The notes: generated by a model not told the origin, from the sequence alone. A stretch of 64,000 bases of DNA from Gammaproteobacteria bacterium (GCA_965243395.1 CBDEUS010000001.1:1024001-1088000), one strand, 5' to 3'; positions 19,620 through 48,840 are shown, counted from the stretch's first letter. Made by a program: numbers and translations.

Positions 19620-20312
19620 TTACTCTAGTATATATGTATAGGCCATCAACTGGCCTGAGCGATCTATCTCAACTGTGATTTCAGGTACATCCGTTAACTC
19701 CTGAATCGTTTGCATGAATAACTCAGATTGCGATGCAGAGACACCATTTACAGATTTAATTACGTCCCCATTATGCAGGCCTAATGACGCCGCTTTTGTG
19801 TCAGGCTTAATCTTGGATAAGGTATAGCCAACCACTTGCTGCTCTTCTATGAGTGGCAGAAAGCCTATTTCAGAAACCAAGCGTTGTTTCTCGCTAACAT
19901 AGTCAGCCACTTCATTTTTCGAAAGCACTACTGTTGCTTTTTGTGTTAAAGATTCTTCATAGTCTGCCTGTAACAATAGATCTCCCACACTGCTTCGAAG
20001 CTGCAAATCATAGTCGCTACCCTTACAACGAAGTTTTGCAGAATCATGCAAAACATCCATTAGTTCACATCCCTGAATGTCATCACCTAATTGAACTAAT
20101 AGCTCATCGCCATTTTCATCAACAAACATAGCGTGAGCATTTTTTGCATTCAAAAATGTCCCGCTTAACACCCAATTGGGTTGGTCAGCAATTGCAATAG
20201 GTATGTGTAAAACAAATATGACTAGCATTAAATATGCTAGCCATATGGTTTTACGTAGGATAGAAATCAATTGGATAATTGAAATTGAACGGTGGAACAT
20301 CTTCTGCTCCAA
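19620..20312 (-). CDS. GspC-like protein (T2SS-C HR domain + PDZ); true start may be ATG 20228
   Basis: Hydrophobic N-terminus, LSGT..AMF..ELLVQLGDDI.G.EL..V HR-like pattern, PDZ (GYTLSKIKPD..LGLHNGDVIKSVNG). Confidence 0.65.
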   Translation of the reverse strand: MEQKMFHRSISIIQLISILRKTIWLAYLMLVIFVLHIPIAIADQPNWVLSGTFLNAKNAHAMFVDENGDELLVQLGDDIQGCELMDVLHDSAKLRCKGSDYDLQLRSSVGDLLLQADYEESLTQKATVVLSKNEVADYVSEKQRLVSEIGFLPLIEEQQVVGYTLSKIKPDTKAASLGLHNGDVIKSVNGVSASQSELFMQTIQELTDVPEITVEIDRSGQLMAYTYILE

Positions 20313-21234
20313 AGTTAATTAGTTTCACGCGTTGTAGAATTTTATTTTCGAGTTGTGCGTTACCTAATTGACTAGAAATAATACTTGCACTTGTCACTTT
20401 ACCTGAAGGAGCAATTGTTATATTCAGTACCACTTTTCCTTGTAAAGAAGCATCTTTGCGTAATTCACGGTTATACAAGGTAAATAATCCACTCTTGTTG
20501 CGATCAAACATGATTTGAATTTTTTCTAAATCACGTGTCTTACCATATCCGGCTCCATCACCCGAACCAGAACCATCACCACCACCAGAGCCAGTACCAC
20601 TTCCACCAATTCCAGAACCCCCTACGGAACCCGCAGCACGACCACCCAGCCCATTGCCGCCAGTGCTTGTGCTTAAACTCGCAGTGTTAATACCGCCACT
20701 AGATTTTCCGTAATTTTTAGTGACTAAAGATCGTTTGGTTGTCTGTCCAGTTGTTCCACTTGTATTAAGAGAACGTTCACCTAACGCTGCCGAGGAAGAA
20801 GTTTTCTTAATATCAGATAGATCATCCTTCATGGCTAACAACCCCGAACTCGCGGCTATTTCTTTTGCCGACTTTTTAGGTATAGGTGCTTTTTTAGGTT
20901 TTGTAGCCGTTTTAATAGGTTCTTTTTTAGGTTGCGGCTTAGGCTTGACCTTTTTTGGTTTAGGTTTAGGTTTCACCTTTCTCTCAACCGGCACTACTTT
21001 AGGTGGTGGCGGTGGAGGAACTTCAACTTTAGGAATAAGTTTAACCAGGCGTTCTGGTTCTTGTTTTTCAGGCTCTTCAGGTTCTGGTAGCGGCAAGATT
21101 GCAAATAAAAATACTAAGAAAAATACTGCAACAACGGACCAACGTAATAATTTATTAAAACGAGCCTGTTGCTCTGGATTAATCGTCCAGGGCAAGTCAT
21201 GCGGGAAATATGAATTTTGAATTACAGCAGCCAT
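20251..21234 (-). CDS. TonB-like energy transducer with AgmX/PglI-type C-terminal domain (GltG-like)
   Basis: Single TM, Pro/Lys-rich then Gly-rich linker, C-terminal LYNRELRKDASLQGKVVLNITIAPSGKV...YPIDF. Confidence 0.8.
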   Translation of the reverse strand: MAAVIQNSYFPHDLPWTINPEQQARFNKLLRWSVVAVFFLVFLFAILPLPEPEEPEKQEPERLVKLIPKVEVPPPPPPKVVPVERKVKPKPKPKKVKPKPQPKKEPIKTATKPKKAPIPKKSAKEIAASSGLLAMKDDLSDIKKTSSSAALGERSLNTSGTTGQTTKRSLVTKNYGKSSGGINTASLSTSTGGNGLGGRAAGSVGGSGIGGSGTGSGGGDGSGSGDGAGYGKTRDLEKIQIMFDRNKSGLFTLYNRELRKDASLQGKVVLNITIAPSGKVTSASIISSQLGNAQLENKILQRVKLINFGAEDVPPFNFNYPIDFYPT

Positions 21235-21241
21235 ATTAGTA

Positions 21242-21742
21242 TTAAGACTCTAATTGAGTTTCTTTTTGTATTACCGATAAAGAAATTTTTGAAAAACCTG
21301 CATAGTTAGCACATAAACGCATTACACGATCCAGTACTTTATATGGCACTTCTTTATCGCCCATTATTGTTACTTCTCTTTCCGGATCTTCTTCTGAGAC
21401 AGGCTCCACCTCATCCGCCAATTGTTTTAATTTTTCAACAAATAGCGAAACTTCAGTAGAGTCTTCCTTCATTACTTCTTCGATTGTAATGACATCTTCA
21501 CCTTGAAGCCTTACCGTCTCTTTACTCAGCATTACTACTACAGATTCCTGAGGTGTAACTTCAGAAATTGATTCAGGCATTTCAATGCCTTTTGGATTAG
21601 GCAGTGGAGTAATCTCGTTTGTGTTCACCAATAAGAAAAACACCAATATTGTGAAAATATCCATCAATGAGACAACATTAAATGGAGGTTGCTTATTGCG
21701 ACTATGTTGTCGTTCCATGCGTTTTAGTCTGCGATCATTCAC
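21242..21742 (-). CDS. ExbD/TolR-family protein (AglS/Q-like)
   Basis: NVVSLMDIFTILVFFLL TM with the conserved Asp; IMGDKEVPY..L..VM. Confidence 0.9.
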   Translation of the reverse strand: MNDRRLKRMERQHSRNKQPPFNVVSLMDIFTILVFFLLVNTNEITPLPNPKGIEMPESISEVTPQESVVVMLSKETVRLQGEDVITIEEVMKEDSTEVSLFVEKLKQLADEVEPVSEEDPEREVTIMGDKEVPYKVLDRVMRLCANYAGFSKISLSVIQKETQLES

Positions 21743-21775
21743 TATTATTTTCCTATTTAGTTCCTTAAATATCCC

Positions 21776-22276
21776 TTAGGCAGGAGCATCACCTAATGAT
21801 ATTTCGGGAAATAATTCAGCACGTGTGAAATTACCCTGCTCATCCTCAATATCAATCGCTCTTACTGCGTCCATAACCAATACTAAACTCTCATAACCTA
21901 TATCAGGTTCAAGTAGAATTGATGCGGCTACGTTGTCAGGAAATTTACTTTTAAGAGATTGCAAAGTTTGTGAAAGTAATTCAACATCATAACTTTCATC
22001 TTTCTTCTCAATCATATATCTGCGAAAACTTCCGTTCTTATCTTGAACAATTAAATAATCTTCTTTAACGATAACTTCTAAAACCAATTCTCTTTTATTT
22101 GGTTTAACTTCATTGGATGCAGCAGGTAAATGTATTTCTAAAATTGTAATCTTAGCGAAAACCAGCATGATCAGTAGAAACGGAACCAAGATCACCATCA
22201 AATTCATGAATGGCGTTACACTTAGCTCTGCTTCATTTTTTGCGAAGCGTTTTTTCCAACGTTTTCTGTTACGCAT
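21776..22276 (-). CDS. ExbD/TolR-family protein (AglQ/S-like), Asn at the Asp position
   Basis: ELSVTPFMNLMVILVPFLL TM; EPDIGYESLVLVMDAVR..LFPEISL. Confidence 0.88.
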   Translation of the reverse strand: MRNRKRWKKRFAKNEAELSVTPFMNLMVILVPFLLIMLVFAKITILEIHLPAASNEVKPNKRELVLEVIVKEDYLIVQDKNGSFRRYMIEKKDESYDVELLSQTLQSLKSKFPDNVAASILLEPDIGYESLVLVMDAVRAIDIEDEQGNFTRAELFPEISLGDAPA

Positions 22277-22305
22277 ACCTGGTTCCTTTAAGTCGATGCA
22301 ATTGC

Positions 22306-23055
22306 TTAGGCTGCAGTTGCCTCAGGTTGACTATCAGTTACAAAGTTAAGAACCTTTACCGATGCCATTTCAAGACTATCAACAATTTCAGTCGTCTTGG
22401 TTGAAAGCCATGCATGTATTAGCAATAAAGGAATACCTACCATCAAACCAAATGCAGTGGTGTTCATTGCTACAGAAATATTTGCTGATAAGATATCTGC
22501 TTTATCCGCAGGATTAGCTTCTGCAATTGATGTAAATGCACCAATCAAACCAATAATAGTTCCAAGCAATCCAAGTAAAGTGGCAATATTTGCGAAGGTG
22601 GCAAGATAGTGCGTACGTTTTTCTAGTTTCGGCAACACTTCCATTAAGCCTTCTTCCATTGCAATTTCAACATCATCACGACGTCGTGTAGTTTTTGCAC
22701 GTAGAAAACCATAGTGAATAATGCGACTTACCGCTGCTTTGGATTTTTCTGCAAAACCCATTGCTTGTGACAAATTCCCACTTCTTAAAGCAGACTGTAG
22801 TTTGTTCCAAGCTAACTGGTTACGCGTACGTGACGCTGAAAGATAAAGATATCTTTCAATTGCAATCGCAATACCAATTGCAAGAATGATTGCAATTGGA
22901 ATCATGAATGGCCCACCTGATTGGAAAAAAGAAACTACCGTTTCATAAAGGCTCGGATCATGCACTTCAGGAGTGAGTAACATTTCTGTACCATCTTCCA
23001 TCATTACAGTCTCTGAACCATCGGTAGTGATGATTTCTGACCCGTTCTCTTCCAT
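22306..23055 (-). CDS. MotA/TolQ/ExbB proton-channel protein (AglR-like)
   Basis: GGPFM..IAIER, ANIATLLGLLGTIIGLI..F, ISVAMNTTAFGL; AAGGAG RBS upstream. Confidence 0.93.
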   Translation of the reverse strand: MEENGSEIITTDGSETVMMEDGTEMLLTPEVHDPSLYETVVSFFQSGGPFMIPIAIILAIGIAIAIERYLYLSASRTRNQLAWNKLQSALRSGNLSQAMGFAEKSKAAVSRIIHYGFLRAKTTRRRDDVEIAMEEGLMEVLPKLEKRTHYLATFANIATLLGLLGTIIGLIGAFTSIAEANPADKADILSANISVAMNTTAFGLMVGIPLLLIHAWLSTKTTEIVDSLEMASVKVLNFVTDSQPEATAA

Positions 23056-23090
23056 TTTTTTGCTCCTTAGCGTTTAACGCTTTAATAAAA

Positions 23091-23108
23091 TCCAGCTCAC
23101 TAGCTGGA
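23091..23108 (-). terminator. Intra-operon hairpin (possible weak terminator or mRNA stabiliser)
   Basis: Perfect 7-bp stem TCCAGCT-N4-AGCTGGA followed on the minus strand by TTTTATT. Confidence 0.45.
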
Positions 23109-23122
23109 ATGAAAACTTAAAA

Positions 23123-23407
23123 TTAATAATATTGTTCGTAATAACTTACTTTTCTTTTGTGCACATCCTTATCTACAGGACCTAGTACTTCATCTAGTAA
23201 ACTTTGCAGAGGCGACCCGTCTAATTTTCCTGGCTCCGGTGCCTTCCAGGGAACAATAACCAACGCCTTGGGTAATTCACGATTACCTATAACTGAAATA
23301 CCCTCTAATTCTTGAGTAGGGCCCACTTGTTTTACTCTTGGATTGTCTTCAGCCGTTACAACACAACATGTTAGAAATAAACTGACAAAAACTAATATTT
23401 TTTTCAT
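23123..23407 (-). CDS. Small exported protein in the GltF/CglF position
   Basis: Signal peptide, LEGISVIGNRELPKALVIVPWK; lies between the TPR lipoprotein and exbB. Confidence 0.65.
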   Translation of the reverse strand: MKKILVFVSLFLTCCVVTAEDNPRVKQVGPTQELEGISVIGNRELPKALVIVPWKAPEPGKLDGSPLQSLLDEVLGPVDKDVHKRKVSYYEQYY

Positions 23408-23412
23408 TTTAC

Positions 23413-24078
23413 TTAGCTACCCTGCTTCTTTAACTGAGACATCCACGCAATTACTTGCTTATCCTGCCCACCAGATAAATCCAAATATTCTTGATAATGG
23501 TTTAATGCGCACCCTATTTTCCTTAAATAGACATCACACAAAATAGCTAGATTCAGATGGGCGTTTTTATAATCCGGATACGCGGCCAGAGCTTTAATAT
23601 ATAGCTTCTCAGCTTCATCAAACTCGCCATTTTCACGCTTTAAAATAGCTAGTTGGTTCAAGGCATATGGATTATTTGGGTTGATCATAATCGCTTTTTC
23701 AAAGGCAAGTTGTGCGCGTTTAGTGTCACCCAGTTCTTTATAAGCGACGCCAATATTTACCCATGGCCCGGAGACTCGTCGATCCATCTTGGCCACGTTT
23801 TGCATTTCAATAATGGCCGTATCGTAATTTTTTGCACTCATATGCTTTAATGCTTCGTTGTAAGCCGTTATTGTTTTCTTGCTAATCCTAAATTTAGGTT
23901 GTGCTAATAATTTTTCTGCAGGCTTTTCATTTTTTGTTGCACTAGTTTTTGAATTCGCCGGCTTTTTAAGGCTTGGTAAATTTGCACAACTAGACAACGT
24001 TGTAATAGCAAATACCATTACACCGAGAACTACTAAAAATTTAATAGATGTTTTGTACAAGGTTTTCACTCCGTTCAA
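23413..24078 (-). CDS. TPR lipoprotein (GltE/AglT-like)
   Basis: Lipobox LSSC; TPRs (PWVNIGVAY, ALNQLAIL..G.FDEAEKLY, AHLNLAILCDVY). Confidence 0.82.
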   Translation of the reverse strand: MNGVKTLYKTSIKFLVVLGVMVFAITTLSSCANLPSLKKPANSKTSATKNEKPAEKLLAQPKFRISKKTITAYNEALKHMSAKNYDTAIIEMQNVAKMDRRVSGPWVNIGVAYKELGDTKRAQLAFEKAIMINPNNPYALNQLAILKRENGEFDEAEKLYIKALAAYPDYKNAHLNLAILCDVYLRKIGCALNHYQEYLDLSGGQDKQVIAWMSQLKKQGS

Positions 24079-26857
24079 CTTTCACATATTGTGCCGGTGA
24101 TAAAATTGCTAATTCAGTCATACTTTTCTTAACCCACTCGTCATACACCTCGGCTGAAATACGTGCTGCATTTAATTCGTGTACTTCAATTGCCTGTTCT
24201 TCAAACGGATAAGCTTGTTCTTCTAAAAGTATTTCATATTGTTCAATTTCTTCACTAGACAATCCTTTAGGACGATCAGATTCCATCATCGCGATCGCAA
24301 AGTCTTGATAAATTCTTCCAGTCCAATACGTTGCTGCTGTAGTTACTTGTGCAACTTTATAATTACTTGCGGTTTCATAAGCATCTAATGCAACCTGCAT
24401 TTGTTTCTTCTTGCGTTTCAGATTTTTTTCTAATGGATGTCGTAAAGAAATTAGCTTATATGCCTCATACTGAATTTTAGCCAAATCCAATGTAGCGTTA
24501 GCAGCCAAAAACTTTGTGCGGTCATTTCGCTCTGCTCCAGCCTGAGCATCGGTATCGATCAATCTACGTTGCCAAGTGCGCTTTTCTTTAATTTTTTTAC
24601 GCCCGTCATACATTTCGATAAGTTTCTGCATTGATTCCATTGCAGGTTCAACAGGCTTCGGATGTTCTTCCACGTAAGCAATTAAACTTTTTTCTGCACC
24701 ATAAAAATCTCCCCCCTTGTCATAGAGACTCGCAGCTTGTAAATGTGCCTCTCGTTTCAATTTAAGATCGCTTGAGCTTGCACCAATAACCTCATATTCT
24801 TTTGCAGCTTTCAGATGTTGGCCGCCTTTGTCGTACGACACCGCAAGTTTTTTAGTTACATCACTTTGCAATTCATGCTCTGGATAGCGCATACGAAAGT
24901 CTTCTAAAGTTGTAGAAGCACGATTCCAATCCTCAAGTTCTAGCAATGCTGCAGAAGCATCATACTGAGCAGTTGCACGAATCTTTGCATCAGGAACGAC
25001 TTGACCCACCCTTAGATAATGAGAAACGGCAGCATCCAAATCGCCTTCTTTTTTACTTGCTTCACCTTGTTTGTAAACTGAAGCTGCCAGTCGATCTTTT
25101 AATGGTTCACGTAACTCCTTATTAGCTTCAACTCTACGCAAAGCTTCAACATATGCCTTTTCTGAACTGGCAAACTGATTTGTATCGAAAGCTGAGTTAG
25201 CTTTAACGGCCCAAGCCGATAACACCAGTTTTTGATCCGCACTCGAGTGCTCTTTAATAATAATGTCGGATGCTTCAGTAGCACGTTCATAATCTTTACG
25301 TGCGTAAAGTTCTTCAGCAGTAACTGTCATTACCTTAGGTACTTCAGGATGCTCAGGATGATTTTCATTAAACTTGAATGAACTATCGATGAGTTGATTT
25401 TTTATTGCTGATTGTTGAGCAGCACTGTTTTCTAACTTAAGCCACTCGTTATAAGCAATAATTGCGGCGTAACCAGCCTCTGCAGATTTAGGATGTTTCT
25501 TGTAATCGTAAGCAGTCTTTTCATAAGACTGTACAGCGTTAGCATATTGCTTGGTTTCATATTGAACTTCCGCTAAATAGAAGTTCATTTCAGATGCTTT
25601 TTCATCCTCAGGGAAAGAATCTAGATAAGCCGTATACCACGTTGCAGCTTCATCATAGAATTCTTTAGGCTTATTACGCTCTTTCTGTGCAACTGAATGA
25701 TAATGTTTTGCAAGATCGGTAATTGTAGATTTAAGCAGTGAAACAATATCTTCTGAATCAGTTATTTCATTGTGAACCCAATATTCAGACTTTAAATTGT
25801 AGTCCACAACAAATTCTTTCTTTGCACGTAGAACTTCTGTAGGAAAGTTGCCTTTCTTATACGCATCAATGGATTTAATTTGAAAATGCGGTGCCTTAGG
25901 GCTGAATCTATGTGTTTCTACAAACTGCCTGTAAGTATTAGCAGCGTCACTCCAACGACGTTTTTCTAGATATTGCTCGCCCAATCGTTCATAGACTAAA
26001 ATCTCATATGGTTTTCTTCCAGATTTTGCAAAAAATCCAGATACCTCATCCGGTCCACCTAAATATGCAAAACTTAAGCTAATTGCACGTAACGTATCGT
26101 CTACGAGTTCTTGATCAGGTTGAGATAGTTGCGCAATTTGTTCTTTTTCAACACCATTGACAAGTAAATTATCCAAAACCAAGTTAAAAGATGGGAGACC
26201 ATAATCATAATCGACTTGCTTGAAGTGCGACCAACCATGTTTATAAAGTGAATGAATATAAAAACGACTTTCAGATCCATGATTTATAACAGACTCATAT
26301 GCATCTTCTGCTTGTGCATATTGTTTTTCAACAAATAAAATTTCGGCACGTCTAAATTGTGTTTCCGCAAAATATGCCGACTGAGGATATTCATAAACCA
26401 ATTGATCCAATGCCTTTAAAGCTTTTTCATGTTCACCACTAAGCTCATAGGCGCGTGAGATTTGATATAGCACACGATCTCTTCCTTCGTAAGTAGTGTG
26501 CTTAGCCAATATATCTTCATATAATTTAATAGTTTCTGCATAACTAGACTTGTTAGGTACTTGAACATTTTCGGCCAAATGATCTTCTGTCTCCTCCATT
26601 CGCAAATCACCTAAGCGACGCAGAACCTCAGGATGCACATCGTCTGGATTTTCTTTAACTATTTTTCTATATTGACTAATTGCTTTGGTTCGACTGCTTT
26701 TTACAGGAACATCTTCATTTACTTTGACTTTCTTCTTGCTAACACTGCCAATAGTATGGCCACGCCCCTTGCCAAAGCTTCCACACGAAACCAGTAAGCT
26801 AGCAATCATGATTGCAAGAATAATTTTTTGAACGAGGCCTACCAAAACTTCCACCAT
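24041..26857 (-). CDS. Large TPR lipoprotein (GltD/AgmU-like)
   Basis: Lipobox LVSC, many TPRs (VLYQISRAYE, ETQFRRAEILF, SLYKHGWSHFK), C-terminal YEILLEEQAYPFEEQAIEVHELN. Confidence 0.82.
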   Translation of the reverse strand: MVEVLVGLVQKIILAIMIASLLVSCGSFGKGRGHTIGSVSKKKVKVNEDVPVKSSRTKAISQYRKIVKENPDDVHPEVLRRLGDLRMEETEDHLAENVQVPNKSSYAETIKLYEDILAKHTTYEGRDRVLYQISRAYELSGEHEKALKALDQLVYEYPQSAYFAETQFRRAEILFVEKQYAQAEDAYESVINHGSESRFYIHSLYKHGWSHFKQVDYDYGLPSFNLVLDNLLVNGVEKEQIAQLSQPDQELVDDTLRAISLSFAYLGGPDEVSGFFAKSGRKPYEILVYERLGEQYLEKRRWSDAANTYRQFVETHRFSPKAPHFQIKSIDAYKKGNFPTEVLRAKKEFVVDYNLKSEYWVHNEITDSEDIVSLLKSTITDLAKHYHSVAQKERNKPKEFYDEAATWYTAYLDSFPEDEKASEMNFYLAEVQYETKQYANAVQSYEKTAYDYKKHPKSAEAGYAAIIAYNEWLKLENSAAQQSAIKNQLIDSSFKFNENHPEHPEVPKVMTVTAEELYARKDYERATEASDIIIKEHSSADQKLVLSAWAVKANSAFDTNQFASSEKAYVEALRRVEANKELREPLKDRLAASVYKQGEASKKEGDLDAAVSHYLRVGQVVPDAKIRATAQYDASAALLELEDWNRASTTLEDFRMRYPEHELQSDVTKKLAVSYDKGGQHLKAAKEYEVIGASSSDLKLKREAHLQAASLYDKGGDFYGAEKSLIAYVEEHPKPVEPAMESMQKLIEMYDGRKKIKEKRTWQRRLIDTDAQAGAERNDRTKFLAANATLDLAKIQYEAYKLISLRHPLEKNLKRKKKQMQVALDAYETASNYKVAQVTTAATYWTGRIYQDFAIAMMESDRPKGLSSEEIEQYEILLEEQAYPFEEQAIEVHELNAARISAEVYDEWVKKSMTELAILSPAQYVKVERSENLVQNIY

Positions 26858-28809: not shown

Positions 28810-28816
28810 TAATTTA

Positions 28817-29365: not shown

Positions 29366-29423
29366 ATTTTTTCTCCACCGACACTTCTACTGTACTTTTA
29401 TTAATCCTTGGTTAAATTACTCA

Positions 29424-30560
29424 CTAGAACCAAGAAGAAATGTAGAACTGTATGGTTGTAGCATCAAATGAATACCCGCCTCCTAAACTTGCGGTATCAG
29501 CAACTGACTCTATTCCCGAATAATCGTCATAGTCATAGTCCAAATACTCAACTGCGAGATTTAATGAAGCTGTGCGTAAAAATTTGTAGTCTTTAAATAA
29601 GTCGTAACGAACACGCCCACCTATTGCAAAGCTATCAAACGTACTAAGCTCTTTATCCCGCGCCATATATCTCAATCGAGTGCTGAAATTGTCGCTATAG
29701 AAATCCGCCTTATCCTGGGTGTAATAGCGACCATAAACGTCAACAACCCATTGATTTCCAATGTATTGTGAATAATTAAGGTCTACGGTATGTGAACGAA
29801 TGTCCCAAGTGTCCCTATAAAACCGATAACCGACTGATGTTGAAGCTCTATGCTGCCAGTATTTAATACCTTTCAAAGAATAGGCTTGTCCTGTCCTTGT
29901 ATCAGGATATTCTTCAGAGCCGCTACCTTGAGAAACACCGTTTACAAATACAAAACGATAGGGGTTATTTAGAAAGCCTTCTTCAACGGTTGCTTCATAA
30001 TCAAACTGCATGGCAATCGTTTTTGTAATCACCTGTGAGATCCCAGCACGGAATAGATAACGATCTAAATCCTCTGCAAAACTATCTAAATCAACTCTTT
30101 CTATATCATCGGTACCAATTGAAGCGCCGATATTCATTTTAGTCATGGCTCCAAACATTTCGTGTGAAATGTCGAAACTCACTAAATTAGCTTCGTAATC
30201 ATCTTCGTCACTGAAGGTATAAGACAGATCCATTAAAGTATTGTCATATAAGTAAGTACCTCCAAGCGTGAATTCGTCACGTTCTTCGTCATATTCGCTT
30301 GCACCTGCTAAAACATCTGGCGATGCGCCACTGATACTGTCATGGTGATAGCCACCATAAATAGAATATTTACCTGCAAAATTTTTACGTACCAGCATTG
30401 TCGCACCATCAACCTCTACCCCTCCTCCATCATAGTAGTGGTAACCTATGTCTGCTCGTTCTTCTGGCAATACTTCTGCCCACACATGATGACTACTAAA
30501 CATTGTTAGCAGTAAAATTAGAAAATATTTTTTGTAATATTTTTTAATCATTATGCTCAA
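29424..30560 (-). CDS. DUF3570-like outer-membrane beta-barrel, probable flavinylation substrate
   Basis: Signal peptide, YYDGGGVEV, DSISGAS, GFLNNPYR, YRFYRDTWDIRSHT, C-terminal Phe. Confidence 0.85.
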   Translation of the reverse strand: MSIMIKKYYKKYFLILLLTMFSSHHVWAEVLPEERADIGYHYYDGGGVEVDGATMLVRKNFAGKYSIYGGYHHDSISGASPDVLAGASEYDEERDEFTLGGTYLYDNTLMDLSYTFSDEDDYEANLVSFDISHEMFGAMTKMNIGASIGTDDIERVDLDSFAEDLDRYLFRAGISQVITKTIAMQFDYEATVEEGFLNNPYRFVFVNGVSQGSGSEEYPDTRTGQAYSLKGIKYWQHRASTSVGYRFYRDTWDIRSHTVDLNYSQYIGNQWVVDVYGRYYTQDKADFYSDNFSTRLRYMARDKELSTFDSFAIGGRVRYDLFKDYKFLRTASLNLAVEYLDYDYDDYSGIESVADTASLGGGYSFDATTIQFYISSWF

Positions 30561-30562
30561 AT

Positions 30563-30829
30563 TTAATTACAACCACACCCACCACCATGCGAATAGCCAG
30601 CACCACGTGCACCTTCACGTGTGTTAAATACATGCTGTCTATATTTGTTAGATAAAGGATCTTTATTAAAACTCATAATGGGGTCTGCCAAATATTCGCG
30701 CTCATAAGGTGCGACCCAAGGCTCTAATTCAGGCAAACTTGGTAAACGAAATGATGAACAAGCACTTAAAGTAATAAGAACTACAGAAATAAATAAAAAC
30801 TGCGCAACTTTTTTAGAAATAATCAACAT
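30563..30829 (-). CDS. DUF4266-like lipoprotein
   Basis: Lipobox LSAC, VAPYEREYLADPIM, REGARG, C-terminal GGGCGCN. Confidence 0.9.
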   Translation of the reverse strand: MLIISKKVAQFLFISVVLITLSACSSFRLPSLPELEPWVAPYEREYLADPIMSFNKDPLSNKYRQHVFNTREGARGAGYSHGGGCGCN

Positions 30830-30832
30830 GAC

Positions 30833-31342
30833 TTATTCCTTTCTTAAGGCTTGAATTTGGCGGTGATAGCGTTCGATATAGCCTTTCTTATATCCTTTAT
30901 TTACATGACGAATTTTTCCTGAGCGATCAATGATGATCGTGGTTGGCATGGCTTTGATATCAAAACTTCTGCTGACGTTTTTGTCTTCATCAAATAAGAC
31001 AGGAAAATTAACTTTTAATTTTTTTGCTAAATACATTGCTTTAGACTGATCTTCGTCAATATTGATGCCTAGTAATTCAAAGTCATACGGGTCTAAAGAT
31101 TCATGCAATTCATTTAGACGGGGAATTTCTTCTGTACATGGACCACACCATGTAGCCCAAAAATTTAGCATTACAATACGTCCTTTTAATTCACTTAAAC
31201 GTATATTCTTTCCGGAAGCACTTTTTAGTGTGAAATCTGGCGCTGTATCAACTTTAATCTTGGCAAATGAGATTACGCTTGCAGCACTAACTACAAGTAA
31301 TAAAGTTAAGATCCCTATAACTAATATATATTTTTTACTCAT
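30833..31342 (-). CDS. TlpA-family thioredoxin-like disulfide oxidoreductase
   Basis: APDFTL, NFWATWCGPC, cis-Pro AMPTT, N-terminal anchor. Confidence 0.93.
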   Translation of the reverse strand: MSKKYILVIGILTLLLVVSAASVISFAKIKVDTAPDFTLKSASGKNIRLSELKGRIVMLNFWATWCGPCTEEIPRLNELHESLDPYDFELLGINIDEDQSKAMYLAKKLKVNFPVLFDEDKNVSRSFDIKAMPTTIIIDRSGKIRHVNKGYKKGYIERYHRQIQALRKE

Positions 31343-31362
31343 GATGTTACTTTTCTGAATAA

Positions 31363-32001
31363 TTAGAAGAACACACCTACGTTGGCTGTAATTTCAAAAT
31401 TATTTGTAAATTCGTTATCGCCTAATAAATCAGTTTCATAGACAATGTCACGTACATCAAAACGAAATGACAACCAATCTGTTGGCAAGACCTTCAAGCC
31501 AAAACCAACGTTGTAGGCAAACTCATCTTCGTCATTAAATTCCACATTGCCTACTCCAAACATCAGGTAAAAGCTACTGGTCATTGCTATATCGCTGCCA
31601 AGAAATACTTCTCCAGGAAAGATGTTGTAACCGATTGAAACGTTGTAGTAGGTGATGTCTTCATCTTGTAAAATATTGAAAGTGGTTAAGTTTTCTAAAG
31701 TTTCATCTGAAGACTCAGACATTCCAATTGAGCCTTCTATAAAAAAGTCTTCTGTAACATGGTAGGCTGCACGTAATCCATACGCGGGCTCTGTTCCAAA
31801 GTCTTCTACATCCAATACTCCGTAATAGGCCGTAATTTCAAAATTTTCAGTGTCAATACGTGGTACAACGATATCTCTTCGGTAAATATCGGGTTCAATT
31901 ACCTGTTCCTGGCTAGACTCAGGTTCGGGTGCTTCCTCGTCTGCATTCACCGGTTGCAAAAGAAATATAATTAATAAAATAAAAAGTAATTTAGTTTTCA
32001 T
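31363..32001 (-). CDS. Outer-membrane beta-barrel (OmpA-like, GltA/B/H-type)
   Basis: Signal peptide, IDTENFE, YHVTEDFFIE, GYNIFPGE, RFDVRD, C-terminal VFF. Confidence 0.82.
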   Translation of the reverse strand: MKTKLLFILLIIFLLQPVNADEEAPEPESSQEQVIEPDIYRRDIVVPRIDTENFEITAYYGVLDVEDFGTEPAYGLRAAYHVTEDFFIEGSIGMSESSDETLENLTTFNILQDEDITYYNVSIGYNIFPGEVFLGSDIAMTSSFYLMFGVGNVEFNDEDEFAYNVGFGLKVLPTDWLSFRFDVRDIVYETDLLGDNEFTNNFEITANVGVFF

Positions 32002-32022
32002 ATGATGTCCTAAGTTTTAGCA

Positions 32023-32817
32023 TCAGAAAAAAAATGAAACCCCTGCGCTGAATTCATCAAACTCATCATTTCGATCGTCTTCTGATAAAACGATGTAGCG
32101 TCGATAATCTCCACGCAAAAAGAATCTTTTAGTTAAGTAATAGCGAACCCCCAGCCCTAAGTTTGCCAAGTCATCTTCCGTTTCAATGTCTTGTATAAGT
32201 GCACCTTTAGGCTCATTTTCAAAACGCCCGTAACCAACCGTAAAATGTGGTGTAAGACGCCAATCCGGAAAAGGTGTTGAAACCAAATTTACTGCGTAAA
32301 TATCTGAACTTGATAATTTCCCTGCAACTTTTGAAACCTGAAATTCAAGCGCGATATTTTCAGTAAATTTGTATGCGAGTCTGGCAGAAACAATTGGGTC
32401 ACTATCAAATTCACCTGCAGAAATTCCAAATTCAATTCGTCTATGCAAGTAATCATCGTATAAAACATCTCTAAACGATTTCGGTATACCTGCAACTGTT
32501 AATGTTTGTTCGATTTGTTTACGACTTACCCAACCTTCAACACCACGATCGTCTTTTATCTTGAACCAATCCGTTTTGCGTTTCATGATGTCAATCCAAG
32601 TGTGTCGCTTTACAACATGAAAGATCGGGTAACCACGACCAGGACCGGTATGTAATTCAATATAGGGGTCAACTATTTTTACGCGTTGGTATTCCTTTTC
32701 ACCAAAAAGATCTGCTAGAGCAGTTGAGAAAGGTATAAATAATAAAATCACTATAAATAAGTGAGTTACACTCTTTGTCAGGCCAAAATAATCTCTATGC
32801 TTATTTGCTATTAACAT
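32023..32817 (-). CDS. SH3-domain + outer-membrane beta-barrel protein
   Basis: PYIELHTGPGRGYPIF..WFKI..GVEGWV SH3b pattern followed by a barrel ending SFFF. Confidence 0.82.
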   Translation of the reverse strand: MLIANKHRDYFGLTKSVTHLFIVILLFIPFSTALADLFGEKEYQRVKIVDPYIELHTGPGRGYPIFHVVKRHTWIDIMKRKTDWFKIKDDRGVEGWVSRKQIEQTLTVAGIPKSFRDVLYDDYLHRRIEFGISAGEFDSDPIVSARLAYKFTENIALEFQVSKVAGKLSSSDIYAVNLVSTPFPDWRLTPHFTVGYGRFENEPKGALIQDIETEDDLANLGLGVRYYLTKRFFLRGDYRRYIVLSEDDRNDEFDEFSAGVSFFF

Positions 32818-32823
32818 TGAGTT

Positions 32824-33348
32824 TTATAGTCCGCAGGCGTTAATTAGAATGGCAGGGTTTGCGGCATTACTAATGGCTGTACAACTTGGAATTGTTGCAG
32901 GAGCAACCATGCATGCTGAACCATCCGTAGGAGCAGGTGTTGAAGCCCATTCAGAAATTGCGTTGTAACATAAATCCCCAACCGTAAGTTGTTGCCCACC
33001 ACCATGAGAATTTCCAGTAGCTTTGCTTAGAAGTAAGCTGTTATTAAGAGTCCTTGCTTCTACTTGAGGAAAATTGTTAGTCATTAATTGTGTTGGGGTA
33101 GGAGGGTTAAATAAGAAAAATCCACCTTGTCCAATTGGAGGTGCATGGCAACCTGACTGCGAGCATGAATTGCCTGTGACAGCATTCTTTGTTCGATTGT
33201 GCATAATAGGTTCAATACACATTTCATAAAGATTGATGCATAGACTTATGCCACTGTTAGGCAGCTCTTCATTCGATGTGCTGTCACATCCTTGGATAAG
33301 ACACACGGGTGCTACTACAGCTAGTAGCACCAGCCGTATTAACTTCAC
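32824..33348 (-). CDS. Cys-rich lipoprotein with atypical CX4CH heme-like motif
   Basis: Lipobox IQGC, IEPIM..CSQSGCH, SLLLSKATG.SHGGG, several extra Cys. Confidence 0.65.
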   Translation of the reverse strand: MKLIRLVLLAVVAPVCLIQGCDSTSNEELPNSGISLCINLYEMCIEPIMHNRTKNAVTGNSCSQSGCHAPPIGQGGFFLFNPPTPTQLMTNNFPQVEARTLNNSLLLSKATGNSHGGGQQLTVGDLCYNAISEWASTPAPTDGSACMVAPATIPSCTAISNAANPAILINACGL

Positions 33349-33369
33349 GACAAACCTCTGTTTTAATTA

Positions 33370-36306
33370 CTAATTTAGACAGGTTGGATTACTAGCAGCA
33401 CCCATGCTAATCCAGGTCAAAATGGTGTCATAGGAGGATCCTGGACCGGTGTCTGAAAATACCGGCTGAGTGGCACTGTTAGGATCATTGATATCAGACA
33501 AGATCTGAGGATGCGGCAAATTCGGTGCTACATTGTTAGAAATAGGTCTTAATAGCAAATCATTATTTTGCGGATCACAAAGATTATTAATCATTGCGCG
33601 TGCCATATTAAAGTCACCTGCTTGATTTCCTGTTAACACAAATAGGTTGAAATTATTTGCGTCTTCATCATCTAGCGGATCAACTGTTGACTCGATATTC
33701 GAACCTTCAGCAACGTGACACGATAAACATTCAGCATTCAGTATTGGATGAATTTGATCATTAAATACTTGGCGACTCACACTTCGGCTTGAAACGATCG
33801 CATCACGAACTATGTATTGCCCATTAACCAATTCGTATGGCTCATTTGTATATTGAGCACCCACATCCACCCATGTAGAAATGAACCACTTTTCATCAGC
33901 CGTTAACATCGAAGCATGATCAGTAGGTCCTAATGCGAAACGCGAACCTGCTCGGAGCTTAGTATTATATATAGTCTCAATTAGATGGCTCGTTCTTGAA
34001 CTATGTGCGGCATTTCCTACATATGCTAATGATGGGCCTCGCTGAAAATATACCAACCCACTTTCTGAAACCACAGGTGGTAGCGGTACGCCATTTTCAT
34101 CTAGTAATAAAGAACCACGTAAAATATTCTGATAAGAAATTACTCGTCCGGCAAATCCTGATAATCCACCCTCTAAACTTAAGCCGGCTGAAACTGGATC
34201 TGCCAACAAACTATTTCGGTGACAGTTTGTACACGTATTTGCACCACGATCTTTATCCCATAACGGTTGAATATGATTTACATAATCAATACGGCCGTTA
34301 TCTGGAACGGGCGTTTCAATATTTGCTAATGAGAATGAAAAGTCTGCTTCAAGACCTACTGACCAATACTCTGCAAAGTCAACACTTTGACTTAAACTTG
34401 GTGCAGATTCATTATTTAAACGTGCGCGTGTTTCTGCCATGGTTTCTGCACCATTGGCATTCGCATGGCTTCCAGCAATAGGAGCAATGTTGATCGAACT
34501 CAATGCACGTCTTGGTGAGTGACATCCATTACAAGTGCGTGTTTCACCAGGACGAACTTGCAACCAATTGGTGTGTGTTTGAAAAGCACGACCAGATTTA
34601 TCTATAACAGAAATTGTTAATGCGCTATCCGCAGGAACTTTTGCCAAAATTGAACCATCAGGTTCAACAGGCACATAACCTAGGATTTCCTGCATCTCAA
34701 ATTTATTACGACTAATTGCACCTTTTGAAATTCCAGGAGGAGTAGGCAAAGCACGGGTTACACGTGCAAAATATCCAGGACGATTCAAATAACTTGGGTT
34801 ATTTGGATCCTTCATGGCTAATAAATCAGGAACATCATCACCAACAGTAGGTATATTTTCTCCTAATGCAGACACCAATACACGATCACCCATGATGTCC
34901 AAAAAGTCAGTGTGGTAAACAGAACGCACACCCAATACACCCATACCTTGTCCACCCAAACCATTTGGTTCAGTCGCCATAACAGGGTCGACTGGTTTAT
35001 TAGGGAGAATGGCAGGTACATCACTCAATGGGCGTGGGAAAAGTGCTACAGGGTCTAAATAAGCTAGTCCATTTGCAGGGGCGGTCTCAACAGGTCTTGC
35101 ATCGCCGTTAAAATCTACCATCCAAATACGATAGTTTGATGGACCAAATACTTGTTTTTGGCTGCCATCCAATGGATGTGTTTCTATTGGAATGGGGTTA
35201 AATGTTCCATCTGGAGCCAATGCACGTGATAACAATACGCGCCCTGTTCCATCCCATAATGGATCCGGAGTGGTGTAACGACCACCAGGTGAAAAACTTC
35301 CATCAAATGTAACTTCGGCCAGATTTACTAAACCATCTGGTTTCACTTGACCGTTGCAACCTGGCGCTATACCCGGAGCAGGCTCACAGTTTTCCGAATA
35401 ATTGACTGCATCAATCGCAAATAATGCGCCGCCTTCGTCCGTACCCGATAAAGGCATGGCAGTAGTCAAAATGGTTCCATTTTGCTGTTCCATTGGATGC
35501 AAATAAGAATTACCAGGACTAAATGCTCCATAAAGAACAAATAAATCTGTTCCATCAGGATTTATTGTAAAAATTGGAAAATGATTTCGAGTGGCTAAAT
35601 GATCCCAACGACTAAACATAATTCGACCATCTCTTAAAACCGATGGATTTCGATCGTGACTTTGGTTAAATGATATTTGTGTAATATCTTGTGTAAGCGG
35701 ATCTAGAACATGTAAATTCAGGGTTTCTTCACGTTCATATTCATCTAATGTTTTATGTTGGGCAATATTTTGTTCCAACAACATCTCTTGCATGCGCTTT
35801 TGACGGTTTGAAGTAAATACAATGCGTCCGTCAGGCAAGTATGCGGGATCTACATCATCACCAAGTTCTGCTAATACGGGATCTAAAACTAAACGTGTAT
35901 ACTGTCTAGTTGCAACATCCATCTCCCAAAGGCTGAAAGTTTCATCATCTGGGCCACGCATAGAAAACGCAACTTTTGTTGCATCATAATTTACTGCTGG
36001 ATCTGAAACATCACCTTGGCCTTGTGTATATGCCGATGTAATGTTTATAGGTACGATGGAACCGGTAGATGCATCTTTGTACATAAGATCACCACCAGGA
36101 GCAAAAGTCACACCATCGGTTGGATTACCCAATGCAGACATACTTCTTTGTACGTACACCATTGGATAATTGCCATTTACAGTGGCAAACCCGTCGGTAG
36201 ACTCTGACGAACCTGTCTTACAACCTTGCATAATTCCAAGTGATGCACACAAGGAAATTATTACAACCCAAATTTGACCAAAGTTCCTTTTCATAACCAA
36301 CTCCAA
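33370..36306 (-). CDS. HzsA-like beta-propeller tri-heme c lipoprotein (probable start ATG 36294)
   Basis: GGAG RBS before 36294, lipobox MQGC, PD40/TolB-like repeats (DVDPAYLPDGRIVFTSNR, DRNPSVLRDGRIMFSRWD), HZS-alpha-middle-like VPVEPDGS...WLQVRPGETRTCNGCH, plus CTNCH and CLSCH. Confidence 0.8.
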   Translation of the reverse strand: MELVMKRNFGQIWVVIISLCASLGIMQGCKTGSSESTDGFATVNGNYPMVYVQRSMSALGNPTDGVTFAPGGDLMYKDASTGSIVPINITSAYTQGQGDVSDPAVNYDATKVAFSMRGPDDETFSLWEMDVATRQYTRLVLDPVLAELGDDVDPAYLPDGRIVFTSNRQKRMQEMLLEQNIAQHKTLDEYEREETLNLHVLDPLTQDITQISFNQSHDRNPSVLRDGRIMFSRWDHLATRNHFPIFTINPDGTDLFVLYGAFSPGNSYLHPMEQQNGTILTTAMPLSGTDEGGALFAIDAVNYSENCEPAPGIAPGCNGQVKPDGLVNLAEVTFDGSFSPGGRYTTPDPLWDGTGRVLLSRALAPDGTFNPIPIETHPLDGSQKQVFGPSNYRIWMVDFNGDARPVETAPANGLAYLDPVALFPRPLSDVPAILPNKPVDPVMATEPNGLGGQGMGVLGVRSVYHTDFLDIMGDRVLVSALGENIPTVGDDVPDLLAMKDPNNPSYLNRPGYFARVTRALPTPPGISKGAISRNKFEMQEILGYVPVEPDGSILAKVPADSALTISVIDKSGRAFQTHTNWLQVRPGETRTCNGCHSPRRALSSINIAPIAGSHANANGAETMAETRARLNNESAPSLSQSVDFAEYWSVGLEADFSFSLANIETPVPDNGRIDYVNHIQPLWDKDRGANTCTNCHRNSLLADPVSAGLSLEGGLSGFAGRVISYQNILRGSLLLDENGVPLPPVVSESGLVYFQRGPSLAYVGNAAHSSRTSHLIETIYNTKLRAGSRFALGPTDHASMLTADEKWFISTWVDVGAQYTNEPYELVNGQYIVRDAIVSSRSVSRQVFNDQIHPILNAECLSCHVAEGSNIESTVDPLDDEDANNFNLFVLTGNQAGDFNMARAMINNLCDPQNNDLLLRPISNNVAPNLPHPQILSDINDPNSATQPVFSDTGPGSSYDTILTWISMGAASNPTCLN

Positions 36307-36556
36307 AATGTAGCAAGATCCTTCTTATCAAAAACTCACGTAGATTCAGCCACTAATATTTAATTTAGTGTGTCCACAACGTCCTTTATCAAATAGCCCT
36401 ATCTCCTTGATTTTTAAGGACTATACGGTATCGATTATTTCTCGATTAAATGAATCAAACCGCGACAGGCGCATCAACGGGTTAAAGAAACAGATAGAAG
36501 GTAAGGAGCTTTACCCTTTGAAATTAGATACGAGATTTAAGCAGGTTAAACGTGAA

Positions 36557-37573
36557 TCAATTCACGTTTGCATTGTGATTTACAGCACTCTCGGGCTGTT
36601 GAAGCCCTTCTGAATAGTAGAGTTTTCGATTCTGATCAACCACTACACCTTCAACCCCTTCCAAACGATTGAGTAATTCAAGACCTTTGCTAACACCCAT
36701 AACAAATATGCTTGTTGATAATGCATCTGTAGTTGTAGCATCACTCGCAATAATTGACACGCTTCGCACTTCGCTTACAGATTTGCCTGTGCTTGGATGA
36801 ATGATATGGTGATATTTTTCACCATCTTCTATGAAAAAGCGTTCGTAATCGCCGGAAGTCGACAATGCTTCATCCTCTAGTGGCAACATCGCAATGACCT
36901 CTTCTGTATTAGCAGGATCACGTATCCCCACTAGCCATGCGCGCCCACGGCGATCACCCAATAACCGTGTGTCTCCTCCTGCAGAAACTAAAGCATGTTC
37001 TATTCCTAAATCTTGTAAATGTTGAATCGATTGATCCACTGCAAAACCTTTTGCAATTCCTCCCAAATCAATTTTTACACCATGCTTTAAAAAGCTAACA
37101 GTAAATTGATTTTTATCTATAACTACATTTTTATAGTCGATTAATTCTTTAGCTTGTTCAATTTCAGCATCCGTAGGTTTAATTTCTTTTCTATAATTGA
37201 ATAAATGTCCAACACTTGCATAGGTAATATCAAATGCACCATCCGTGAGACGCGAAACTTCTAATGATTTTTCAATTACATGGAATAAATCACGGTCAAC
37301 TTCTACTGGCTTCTCATGTGCTACTTTGTTGATTTTAGAAAGTTGACTATCCTCAATATACGGGCTCATTAAATGGTTAACTCGCTCCATTTCATTTAAA
37401 ACACTATCAATACCCTCTTGTCGTTTGTCTGCATCTGAGTGCCAAATTTCAACACGAATTTTTGTACCCATTATTGCCGCATCTTCTGTCTGCCACTCCG
37501 CTGCCAGCGGTAAGGAAAACAGCGACAAAATTAAACTAAATAATTGAAATTTGACTAATTGCTTAAATCGCAT
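36557..37573 (-). CDS. apbE: FAD:protein FMN transferase
   Basis: IMGT, GAFDIT, IDLGGIAKGFAVD, AGGD, STSGDYERF, YHHII, DALST; signal peptide. Confidence 0.95.
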   Translation of the reverse strand: MRFKQLVKFQLFSLILSLFSLPLAAEWQTEDAAIMGTKIRVEIWHSDADKRQEGIDSVLNEMERVNHLMSPYIEDSQLSKINKVAHEKPVEVDRDLFHVIEKSLEVSRLTDGAFDITYASVGHLFNYRKEIKPTDAEIEQAKELIDYKNVVIDKNQFTVSFLKHGVKIDLGGIAKGFAVDQSIQHLQDLGIEHALVSAGGDTRLLGDRRGRAWLVGIRDPANTEEVIAMLPLEDEALSTSGDYERFFIEDGEKYHHIIHPSTGKSVSEVRSVSIIASDATTTDALSTSIFVMGVSKGLELLNRLEGVEGVVVDQNRKLYYSEGLQQPESAVNHNANVN

Positions 37574-48824: not shown

Positions 48825-48840
48825 AAGGAATATACTAATT

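Follow-up and report, generated by a model that had tools for sequence, protein, structure and literature searches.

The window analysed here is a stretch of 64,000 nucleotides from a Gammaproteobacteria bacterium (GCA_965243395.1, CBDEUS010000001.1:1024001-1088000), whose genome amounts to 2.58 Mb in two contigs. Between positions 19620 and 37573 of this window, 18 genes on the minus strand bring together a proton motor of the Agl/Glt kind and a set of predicted envelope proteins with flavin, thiol and heme signatures. We propose, with a probability of roughly 0.55, that they encode a single outer-membrane (OM) redox machine coupled to the proton motive force (PMF), which would represent a third output module for Glt-type motors beside Glt and Nfs, and not a motility system. 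That the 18 genes form one functional system appears very likely; that the motor gates, positions or surface-exposes an OM electron conduit of flavin, thiol and heme carriers is put forward tentatively. The proposal is built on gene content, conservation, co-occurrence and modular linkage, which are directly observed.

All 18 open reading frames (ORFs, whose starts are mechanical calls) are co-directional and are read from 37573 down to 19620. Their spacing is operon-like: 16 of the 17 junctions overlap or measure at most 67 bp, the sole exception being the 250 bp that separate the ApbE gene (gene 01) from the heme protein gene (gene 02). The redox and motor halves distinguished in the preliminary description, which was made from the sequence alone, meet between the DUF3570 gene (gene 08) and the gene of an exported hypothetical protein, hyp182 (gene 09), where the gap is 58 bp and the next one 7 bp. 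According to the translations, none of the 18 products is cytoplasmic: each has a signal peptide, a lipobox or a transmembrane (TM) anchor. The preliminary description had reported 18 co-directional, mostly tightly spaced genes and had proposed family labels for them; the ORF listing returned the same arrangement, and the Pfam and NCBIfam hidden Markov model (HMM) searches that it had suggested reproduced all the labels. It had also seen no cytoplasmic gliding adaptor, and none was found among the cluster products, the TonB-like protein (gene 17) being itself devoid of an FHA domain. Three products, namely those of gene 03 (174 aa), of gene 09 (hyp182) and of gene 13 (94 aa), matched no Pfam or NCBIfam family.

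The same combination of genes recurs in many other genomes, which were followed with two markers: the AgmX/PglI C-terminal domain of gene 17, the only one in the window's genome, and the short type of DUF3570 encoded by gene 08. The class was sampled evenly: the AgmX model was run on 400 genomes (E <= 1e-8; genome G271 left out) and DUF3570 on 401, genome G063 entering the DUF3570 tallies only. AgmX was found in 73 genomes and DUF3570 in 90, with the short type in 58 and the full type in 50, the two types being split by a rough rule, the start of the profile match. AgmX and the short DUF3570 occurred together in 52 genomes against about 10.6 expected if they were independent, a count taken from related, non-independent genomes for which no formal test is claimed. 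Both markers were found on one contig in 24 genomes, 23 of them (19 family codes) within 27.2 kb and one at 510 kb. Among these same-contig genomes, 12 had the markers 8.8-10.9 kb apart on the same strand and eight 19.5-21.6 kb apart, mostly in divergent orientation. The linkage of motor and redox genes is thus far beyond chance. Rarity of their adjacency in other genomes had been set beforehand as grounds for abandoning a joint system; the class sample and the gene maps described below show it to be frequent, across 19 families.

Closer to the window, the two markers were separated by 9.1-9.7 kb of a single contig in 13 of 41 genomes of close kin, belonging to four genera; most of the remaining carriers were split over small contigs, four further genomes of the genus having the markers on different ones. 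At the level of the phylum (301 genomes, i.e., 300 sampled plus G000), AgmX was detected in 10 genomes, nine of which came from the window's class. The sole match outside the class (G569:C117:3114-3386) is a 203-aa frame scoring 51 bits.

Gene maps were drawn by tblastn of the 18 window proteins against genome stretches, at E <= 1e-4 or stricter, so that distant homologues can be missed. Another 11 sampled genomes showed the full colinear order 02-(03)-04-05-06-07-08-(01)-09-...-17, with protein identities of 27-73% and the ApbE gene at the 5' end, between genes 08 and 09, or outside the stretch. In addition, species genomes were scanned with a hyp182 alignment, which returned at least 586 encoding stretches among at least 595 pattern matches; the locus counts in this paragraph concern the best 80, which are those nearest to the window hyp182 and are biased toward its clade. 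Apart from a few cultured strains, these loci come from uncultured Gammaproteobacteria; the whole takes in Steroidobacteraceae, Woeseiaceae, Acidiferrobacterales, Chromatiales, Thiogranum and Lentisalinibacter sediminis C23, at whose locus L063 ApbE, TlpA and hyp182 lead on to gene 17. Among them, gene 10 follows hyp182 in all 72 loci with room for it, and a full set of genes 10, 11 and 14-17 is seen in 48 of 48 loci. In 65 of 70 loci, the end of a co-directional redox gene lies upstream of hyp182 at less than 1.5 kb (TlpA in 46, DUF3570 in 11 and ApbE in eight), and the heme protein is encoded in 45 of the 55 loci with more than 9.5 kb of upstream sequence.

The divergent arrangement has features of its own. 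Three extra large genes without window counterpart stand between ApbE/hyp182 and the heme protein (L151:11481-16730, L153:11490-17398, L154:3794-9508 and L149:4182-9449), and one of them encodes an 830-920-aa protein with a Laminin_G_3 (ConA-like) domain.

Comparison of these arrangements revises the division of the cluster. The two halves of the preliminary description are not its natural units, as three blocks recur: the stator with the TonB-like protein (genes 14-17), a periplasmic set (genes 09-13) and an OM/redox module (genes 02 and 04-08), ApbE moving around or lying elsewhere. Of the 52 two-marker genomes, 37 could be resolved and 15 were stopped by contig ends. Module and motor formed one locus in 23 of the resolved genomes, the module was accompanied by a motor-less copy of the scaffold in seven, and the two lay apart in the other seven. 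The genomes of the second group (G109, G131, G136, G292, G299, G312 and G419) join module 02-08 to a copy of 09-11 or 09-13 without 14-17; their AgmX locus is found elsewhere and has its own tetratricopeptide repeat (TPR) genes in five of the six cases examined. Marker distance was dropped as sole measure of linkage, since such motor-less transducer copies were found. Module 02-08 without a core was not seen in the sampled genomes, save in two fragmented drafts. The six genomes scored as having a short DUF3570 without AgmX comprise three canonical cassettes matched in fragments (G092, G325 and G339), two fragmented drafts and one match to a fragment of 52 positions only.

Trees are consistent with this picture. 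In a FastTree phylogeny of ExbB, the two ExbD proteins and hyp182 (84 rows), the redox-association label changed four times versus 14.0 when labels were shuffled, and none of 500 shuffles gave a value as low. Similarly, hyp182 and the 938-aa TPR protein (55 class-sample rows) gave seven changes versus 17.5, again with 0 of 500 shuffles as low, and the motor-less scaffold copies sat beside redox-associated rows. Redox-associated sequences therefore cluster, in groups that are not strictly single clades and with long branches present.

The stator and transducer block is encoded by genes 14-17, on the minus strand as is the rest of the cluster. Gene 14 (22306-23055) encodes an ExbB/TolQ/AglR-type proton channel (MotA_ExbB PF01618, 97.3 bits) and is one of five MotA/ExbB loci in the genome. 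Genes 15 (21776-22276) and 16 (21242-21742) both encode ExbD/TolR-type proteins (PF02472, 51.4 and 59.9 bits, respectively). The TM Asp is present in gene 16 and in every one of its 71 linked and 20 stand-alone rows; gene 15 has Asn at this usual Asp position, a column that holds Asn in 37 and Asp in 37 linked rows and Asn in 20 of 20 stand-alone rows. Gene 17 (20251-21234) encodes a TonB-like bitopic protein made of a TM helix, a Pro/Lys-rich rod, a Gly/Ser-rich linker and an AgmX/PglI C-terminal domain (NF033768, 60.5 bits for a cut-off of 40). It also scores 36.9 bits with tonB_Cterm and 23.4 bits with Pfam TonB_C, under the 24.6 cut-off.

The last gene of the cluster, gene 18 (19620-20312), encodes a membrane-anchored protein with a PDZ match of 23.7 bits and GspC models below cut-off (67.7 versus 150 and 55.8 versus 101.6). 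It had been listed as a GspC-like member, and its PDZ/GspC-like nature was borne out; it is however no general part of the cluster but a lineage-specific one, being present in only eight loci versus 70 for gene 17. The idea that it opens a type II secretion operon was rejected, as its neighbours are the TonB-like gene and fadE, and no type II secretion gene was found beside it.

Genes 09-13 encode the periplasmic set. The product of gene 09 (28817-29365), hyp182, is exported, and its AlphaFold 2 model (pLDDT 82.9) comprises a signal peptide, one long helix and a beta-sandwich, for which the fold search returned nothing at E <= 0.001 and generic beta-sandwiches only. Public clusters of this family bear the automatic name 'AraC family transcriptional regulator' (score 0.97), which is probably a propagated misannotation, since hyp182 is exported and modelled as a helix with a beta-sandwich. 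Three TPR proteins of 656, 938 and 221 aa follow in a conserved order. The first, encoded by gene 10 (26839-28809), is exported, matches TPR families and is GltC-like by size and position. The second, encoded by gene 11 (24041-26857), is a lipoprotein (lipobox LVSC; TPR_6 and TPR_16) and is GltD-like by size and position; a YbgF model covers five of its TPR stretches with 96.8 bits (cut-off 90.1), and a BamD-like model gives 72.7 bits. The third, encoded by gene 12 (23413-24078), is a lipoprotein (lipobox LSSC; TPR families) and the sole one of the three with a direct Glt match, to GltE, at 40.4 bits and under the 225 cut-off. Gene 13 (23123-23407) encodes a 94-aa exported protein with a signal peptide, whose position is conserved in linked and stand-alone clusters. 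A complex prediction pairing gene 10 (residues 36-656) with the barrel of gene 05 (residues 21-212) gave scores of 0.01 and 0.00, which speak neither for nor against binding.

Genes 01-08 encode the redox and OM proteins. Gene 01 (36557-37573) encodes an ApbE FAD:protein FMN transferase (flavin adenine dinucleotide, FAD; flavin mononucleotide, FMN) with an N-terminal signal peptide (PF02424, 285.8 bits); its orthologues in related clusters share 38-58% identity and vary in position. Gene 02 (33370-36306) encodes a 978-aa heme lipoprotein (lipobox MQGC) with a PD40/TolB-like propeller, an HZS_alpha middle domain (70.6 bits) and three CxxCH motifs, the sole sequence match of which in the PDB is hydrazine synthase alpha (5c2v_A, E 8e-11). 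Among 49 complete orthologues, the number of CxxCH motifs is two in 26, three in 14 and one in nine. Gene 03 (32824-33348) encodes a 174-aa lipoprotein with a single CX4CH, kept in 12 of 12 orthologues, and a C-terminal Cys-Gly. It is found in 12 loci versus 63 for gene 02 and co-occurs with the long, three-heme form of the latter. Its lipobox Cys is followed by Asp at +2, a residue that favours inner-membrane retention of lipoproteins in E. coli; because of this rule, the gene 03 heme protein may be anchored in the inner membrane and face the periplasm.

Gene 04 (32023-32817) encodes an exported protein with an SH3 domain (SH3_3/SH3_4) and a small OM beta-barrel (OMP_b-brl, 47.1 bits), and a colinear orthologue is present in every complete module. 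Gene 05 (31363-32001) encodes another small OM barrel, of the OMP_myx_plus family (TIGR04565, 145.3 bits for a cut-off of 60; also Pfam OMP_b-brl), in which the N-terminal periplasmic stretch before the barrel is well conserved in a 23-row alignment. Gene 06 (30833-31342) encodes a membrane-anchored TlpA/ResA-type thioredoxin with a WCGPC motif (AhpC-TSA 114.6 bits, Redoxin 102.7 bits, Thioredoxin_8). Gene 07 (30563-30829) encodes a DUF4266 lipoprotein (PF14086, 77.7 bits) ending in GCGCN, and this C-terminal CxC is kept in 25 of 25 orthologues.

Gene 08 (29424-30560) encodes the short-type DUF3570 protein (PF12094, 133.2 bits over profile positions 113-414 only), in which the sequence DSISGAS is found. 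Its AlphaFold 2 model, computed from a 31-row alignment, has 16 strands (pLDDT 90.4, pTM 0.82), with short even-to-odd turns and long odd-to-even loops, and Foldseek matched it to generic OM barrels only, i.e., FadL, the PelB barrel (TM 0.51), OmpG and AlgE. From this model we confidently predict an OM barrel. The sequence DSISGAS lies where strand 3 ends and the 79-89 loop begins, at the connection of strand 3 to strand 4; by usual OM-barrel topology, we infer that this candidate flavinylation site would be on the outer side or in the lumen.

Three module proteins have a Cys near their C-terminus: gene 02 ends in PTCLN (codons 33370-33390), gene 03 in ACGL (32824-32840) and gene 07 in GCGCN (30563-30580). 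Among orthologues, such a Cys is again seen in the long form of gene 02 and in gene 03. A JDVT-CTERM sorting signal needs a TM segment and an Arg cluster after the Cys, and was rejected for genes 02 and 03 as no TM segment follows.

The cluster is bounded downstream by an acyl-CoA dehydrogenase gene (fadE, 16941-19400), after a gap of 219 bp, and upstream by a divergent moeA on the other strand (37695-38978). The latter belongs to a group of molybdenum cofactor genes directly upstream, with moeA on the plus strand followed by moaE (38986-39423) and a moaA-like gene (41240-42262), both on the minus strand. An Rfam search of the window matched no family. A scan of positions 18800-38200 was uninformative, with 37 promoter-like sequences for 61.0 expected and 17 terminator-like ones for 12.7 expected. 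A terminator-like hairpin with a T run (23091-23108, minus strand) lies within the 67 bp that separate exbB from the 94-aa gene, marking the border of scaffold and stator genes where other genomes split the cluster too. Elsewhere, the window encodes a thioredoxin-like protein (44872-45381), a 780-aa VWA-domain protein (48757-51099) preceded by a DnaJ-like gene, a HerA-like ATPase (52642-54132) and a BLUF blue-light sensor (56778-57224).

Taken as one machine, the three blocks would work together as follows. At the inner membrane, the stator (ExbB and a mixed ExbD pair) would energise the TonB-like force transducer. In the periplasm, hyp182, the three TPR proteins and the 94-aa protein would form a scaffold, the presumed counterpart of Myxococcus GltC/D/E. 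At the OM, module 02-08 would assemble two small barrels, the 16-strand DUF3570, DUF4266, TlpA and one or two c-heme lipoproteins, with ApbE attaching FMN to DUF3570. By analogy with the predicted Myxococcus complex (PMC11761067), the C-terminal domain of gene 17 would engage the TPR scaffold 09-13, which in turn may hold an OM platform of barrels 04, 05 and 08. Electrons could flow from DsbD, encoded by one gene elsewhere in the genome and outside the cluster, to TlpA, DUF4266, FMN-DUF3570 and the heme lipoprotein(s), or in reverse. Through the scaffold, the motor would do mechanical work on the platform, exposing, positioning or gating its redox proteins, as the same kind of motor acts on the GltABHK/CglB platform in Myxococcus. 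The physical coupling, the direction of electron flow and the substrate are what we infer here.

Several observations weigh against a single machine, the strongest being that cores and the canonical cassette can each exist alone. A second, canonical TlpA-DUF4266-DUF3570-ApbE cassette lies on the other contig of the genome (C2, about 475.7-478.6 kb; L003:9178-12149). Its DUF3570 is full-length (225 bits, profile positions 2-397). Neither motor genes nor barrel or heme protein genes adjoin this cassette, which is flanked by a Cys/Met pyridoxal phosphate (PLP) enzyme gene and a patatin-like gene. Since this cassette stands without a motor in the same genome, the redox chemistry does not need one. 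In the class sample, 21 of the 73 AgmX genomes have no short DUF3570 (13 have no DUF3570 at all and eight the full type only), and 20 loci from 19 of these 21 genomes are cores without redox genes. Where the contig allows, they consist of genes 09-17 only (a 9-gene core), with hyp182 at 22-44% identity and flanks of unrelated housekeeping genes (lptD/surA, pgi and ferrochelatase among them). In seven of the 37 resolved genomes (G128, G192, G205, G261, G275, G310 and G315) the module is separated from all core genes, TlpA or ApbE having stayed beside the core in two of them.

The flavinylation motif, the statistics and the gliding models add to these points. A strict [S/T]GA[S/T] is present in only 15 of 35 short DUF3570 orthologues, and in the window the one exact motif is SGAS, the second published site reading AGAS. 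From published motifs, ApbE may tolerate Ser in place of Gly in its target, and the relaxed pattern D..[ST][GS]A[ST] is found in 31 of the 35 orthologues, nearly all of which align a site D-x-[IV]-[ST]-[GS]-A-S. The relatedness of the sampled genomes and the clade bias of the hyp182 loci also count here, and the NCBIfam gliding equivalogs all fall under their cut-offs (GltE 40.4 versus 225, GltG 26.7 versus 650 and GltJ 30.6 versus 450).

Two of the lone modules have neighbours of their own: in G128 and G310 (L165:12273-16602 and L171:5235-9501), a histidine kinase, an MMPL transporter, a LolA-like gene and one gene of unknown family stand beside the module.

Among the alternatives, energised reductive uptake, modelled on TonB-dependent transport with periplasmic reduction, is unlikely. 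The TonB-like motor would open DUF3570 or the small barrels for the import of a metal or an oxidised nutrient, which the flavin, thiol and heme proteins would reduce or release. The cluster does encode ExbB/ExbD and a TonB-type C-terminal domain, the nearest folds of the 16-strand DUF3570 model are OM transport barrels (FadL, PelB, OmpG, AlgE), and flavinylation has been linked to iron transporters, 25 DUF3570 clusters encoding the VIT1 iron transporter (Meheust 2021, PMC8238504). However, neither this cluster nor related ones encode an inner-membrane or periplasmic transporter, and Pfam detected no plug domain or TonB-dependent receptor family in it; the large TPR scaffold is typical of Glt systems and not of TonB uptake, and stand-alone cores occur without any adjoining barrel.

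About equally improbable is an envelope maintenance role in which the parts are co-regulated and mechanically independent, the redox module repairing or detoxifying oxidative damage at the OM, a Tol-like motor keeping the envelope intact, and a common stress accounting for the shared operon. The motor-free canonical cassette of the same genome, the cores without module and the modules apart from cores would all fit, as would the echo of Tol-Pal in the YbgF-like TPR protein (96.8 bits) and the TolB-like propeller. This explanation would not predict that module 02-08 without a core is unseen in the sampled genomes, bar the two fragmented drafts, nor that a module split from the stator often keeps its own scaffold copy; such copies were kept with the module in seven genomes, and co-regulation alone is therefore hard to sustain.

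Surface transport or motility as in Glt and Nfs, with an OM platform moved along the surface, gene 02 as a CglB-like adhesin or cargo and the redox proteins as sensors or accessories, is less likely still. The core gene content is that of Agl-Glt, and the display of the CglB propeller lipoprotein on GltABHK parallels gene 02 and barrels 04, 05 and 08 (PMC11761067). Against this, the cluster has neither cytoplasmic adaptor domains nor, in Pfam, a VWA adhesin domain, its TonB-like protein has no FHA domain, no Glt gliding equivalog reaches its cut-off, and the core alone has been argued not to drive motility (Luciano 2011, PMC3169522). Finally, two unrelated systems standing side by side by chance or hitch-hiking, although described separately in the literature and each able to occur alone, are very unlikely on the counts (52 co-occurring genomes for about 10.6 expected, and a separation of at most 27.2 kb for 23 of the 24 same-contig pairs, which span 19 families), on the gene order kept at 27-73% protein identity, and on the several different arrangements that all keep the sets linked.

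A PMF-coupled OM redox machine, if it exists, would bear on two widespread systems without known function, namely the Agl/Glt core outside gliders (since 2011) and DUF3570 flavinylation (since 2021). One clade of the Agl/Glt core is systematically tied to a special form of DUF3570, an HzsA-like heme lipoprotein and two barrels, which turns two functional questions into a single tractable one for environmental Gammaproteobacteria, among them Steroidobacteraceae, Woeseiaceae, Acidiferrobacterales and Chromatiales. Should the coupling prove mechanical, it would be a new way of controlling OM electron transfer and the first instance in which mechanical work powered by the PMF is coupled to electron transfer outside the cytosol, and the ancestral Agl/Glt core of Gammaproteobacteria would gain a redox job at the cell surface. 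The building blocks are both in print; their systematic coupling was not found in the publications covered, supplementary gene tables aside. Among the part of the matches covered, publications on DUF3570/DUF4266 did not deal with motors, and those on Agl-Glt or gliding contained no ApbE or flavinylation term.

Among known systems, Mtr-type porin-cytochrome conduits combine an OM barrel with redox lipoproteins and rely on decaheme wires. By likeness, the OM barrels and redox lipoproteins of the cluster could carry electrons across the OM; the carriers here would differ, being FMN, thiols and few hemes, and no homology was detected, no direct comparison having been made. To our knowledge, no motor is coupled to Mtr.

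Hydrazine synthase alpha (5c2v) resembles gene 02 in having a propeller, a middle domain and c-heme domains in the same order, and the alignment of the two spans the first heme motif and the C-terminal heme region. Membership was rejected, with 76 versus 800 for NF052339 and no beta or gamma partner genes in the cluster, which also differs by the lack of any anammox context. More than 600 HZS_alpha proteins outside anammox are on record without known function (PMC12758564).

The likeness to Tol-Pal lies in the TolQ/TolR-type stator, the elongated transducer of TolA/TonB type, the PD40 propeller, the YbgF-like TPR protein and the OM anchoring proteins. Tol-Pal equivalogs were however far under cut-off (TolQ 59.1 versus 221, TolR 30.5 and 35.8 versus 127.3, TolB 25.8 versus 343), and membership was rejected on these curated values, the YbgF repeat model alone passing (96.8 versus 90.1). 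In contrast to Tol-Pal, the propeller protein here is a heme lipoprotein, and the genome has four other MotA/ExbB loci.

The redox part comes closest to a gene cluster of ApbE, DUF3570, a thioredoxin-like protein and DUF4266 whose function was left open (Meheust 2021, PMC8238504). There, the DUF3570 of Chlorobium luteolum was shown experimentally to be flavinylated by its ApbE, with two [S/T]GA[S/T] sites, and an electron supply from DsbD was proposed. All four families are present here, including an extracytosolic ApbE and a thioredoxin-like protein with a DUF4266 that ends in CxC, and DUF3570 carries SGAS; the redox set of the preliminary description thus contains this known cassette. It differs in that DUF3570 is of a shorter subtype with one matching site instead of two, and in that DsbD is encoded outside the cluster. 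Moreover, the short DUF3570 is always accompanied by two small barrels and the HzsA-like heme lipoprotein and is tied to the Glt-type core. The main text of that publication contains no ExbB, MotA or tetratricopeptide term, and its sole mention of TonB concerns PepSY-like clusters and not DUF3570.

The motor part matches the core complex defined by Luciano (2011, PMC3169522), made of aglR, aglQ, aglS, gltC, gltD, gltE, gltG and one extra gene without Myxococcales homologues, which is clustered in Gammaproteobacteria not known to glide, has no known function and was argued to be insufficient for motility by itself. Genes 09-17 fit this gene content, with one TolQ/ExbB-like protein (97.3 bits), two TolR/ExbD-like ones (51.4 and 59.9 bits), a GltG/PglI-type bitopic protein recognised by its AgmX/PglI domain, TM helix and Pro-rich rod, and three TPR proteins that are putative counterparts of GltC/D/E. 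The match to the Agl-Glt core claimed at the outset therefore holds at the level of gene content, in the form known from these non-gliding bacteria. The set has hyp182 and the 94-aa gene as constant extra members, both being candidates for the extra gene of Luciano. Neither the Myxococcus Group A genes (GltA, B, F, H, I, J, K) nor cytoplasmic adaptors were found in the cluster, and membership of the gliding machines was rejected on the curated cut-offs. Since the Glt equivalogs stayed under these values and the TonB-like protein has no FHA domain, we would file the motor set with the core-complex kind and not as a gliding machine. In the passages covered, that publication mentions no flavin or redox neighbours (ApbE, DUF3570, thioredoxin or heme proteins) and no barrels by the core, no search for these words having been made and supplementary gene tables aside.

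In the predicted Myxococcus complex, GltG binds GltD and GltF while GltC binds the N-terminal extensions of the GltA/B barrels, and the GltABHK platform is described as displaying CglB, a beta-propeller lipoprotein of the OM (PMC11761067); Agl-Nfs is the spore-coat machine of the same organism (PMC3858216). The likeness to the window is a close one of form: three barrels, a small lipoprotein and a displayed propeller lipoprotein (GltABH, GltK and CglB) would have their counterparts in barrels 04, 05 and 08 and lipoproteins 02, 03 and 07, and TPR proteins 10-12 in those that bridge the Myxococcus platform to its motor. The difference lies in the cargo, which here would be redox proteins in place of an adhesin or a polysaccharide, and in the absence of cytoplasmic parts from the cluster. 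Above all, one proton motor serves alternative periplasmic and OM sets in Agl-Glt and Agl-Nfs, and the genomes that keep the module with a motor-less scaffold copy and the core elsewhere reproduce this Myxococcus pattern of several transducer sets sharing one motor, which would extend the idea of one motor with several output modules beyond Myxococcus.

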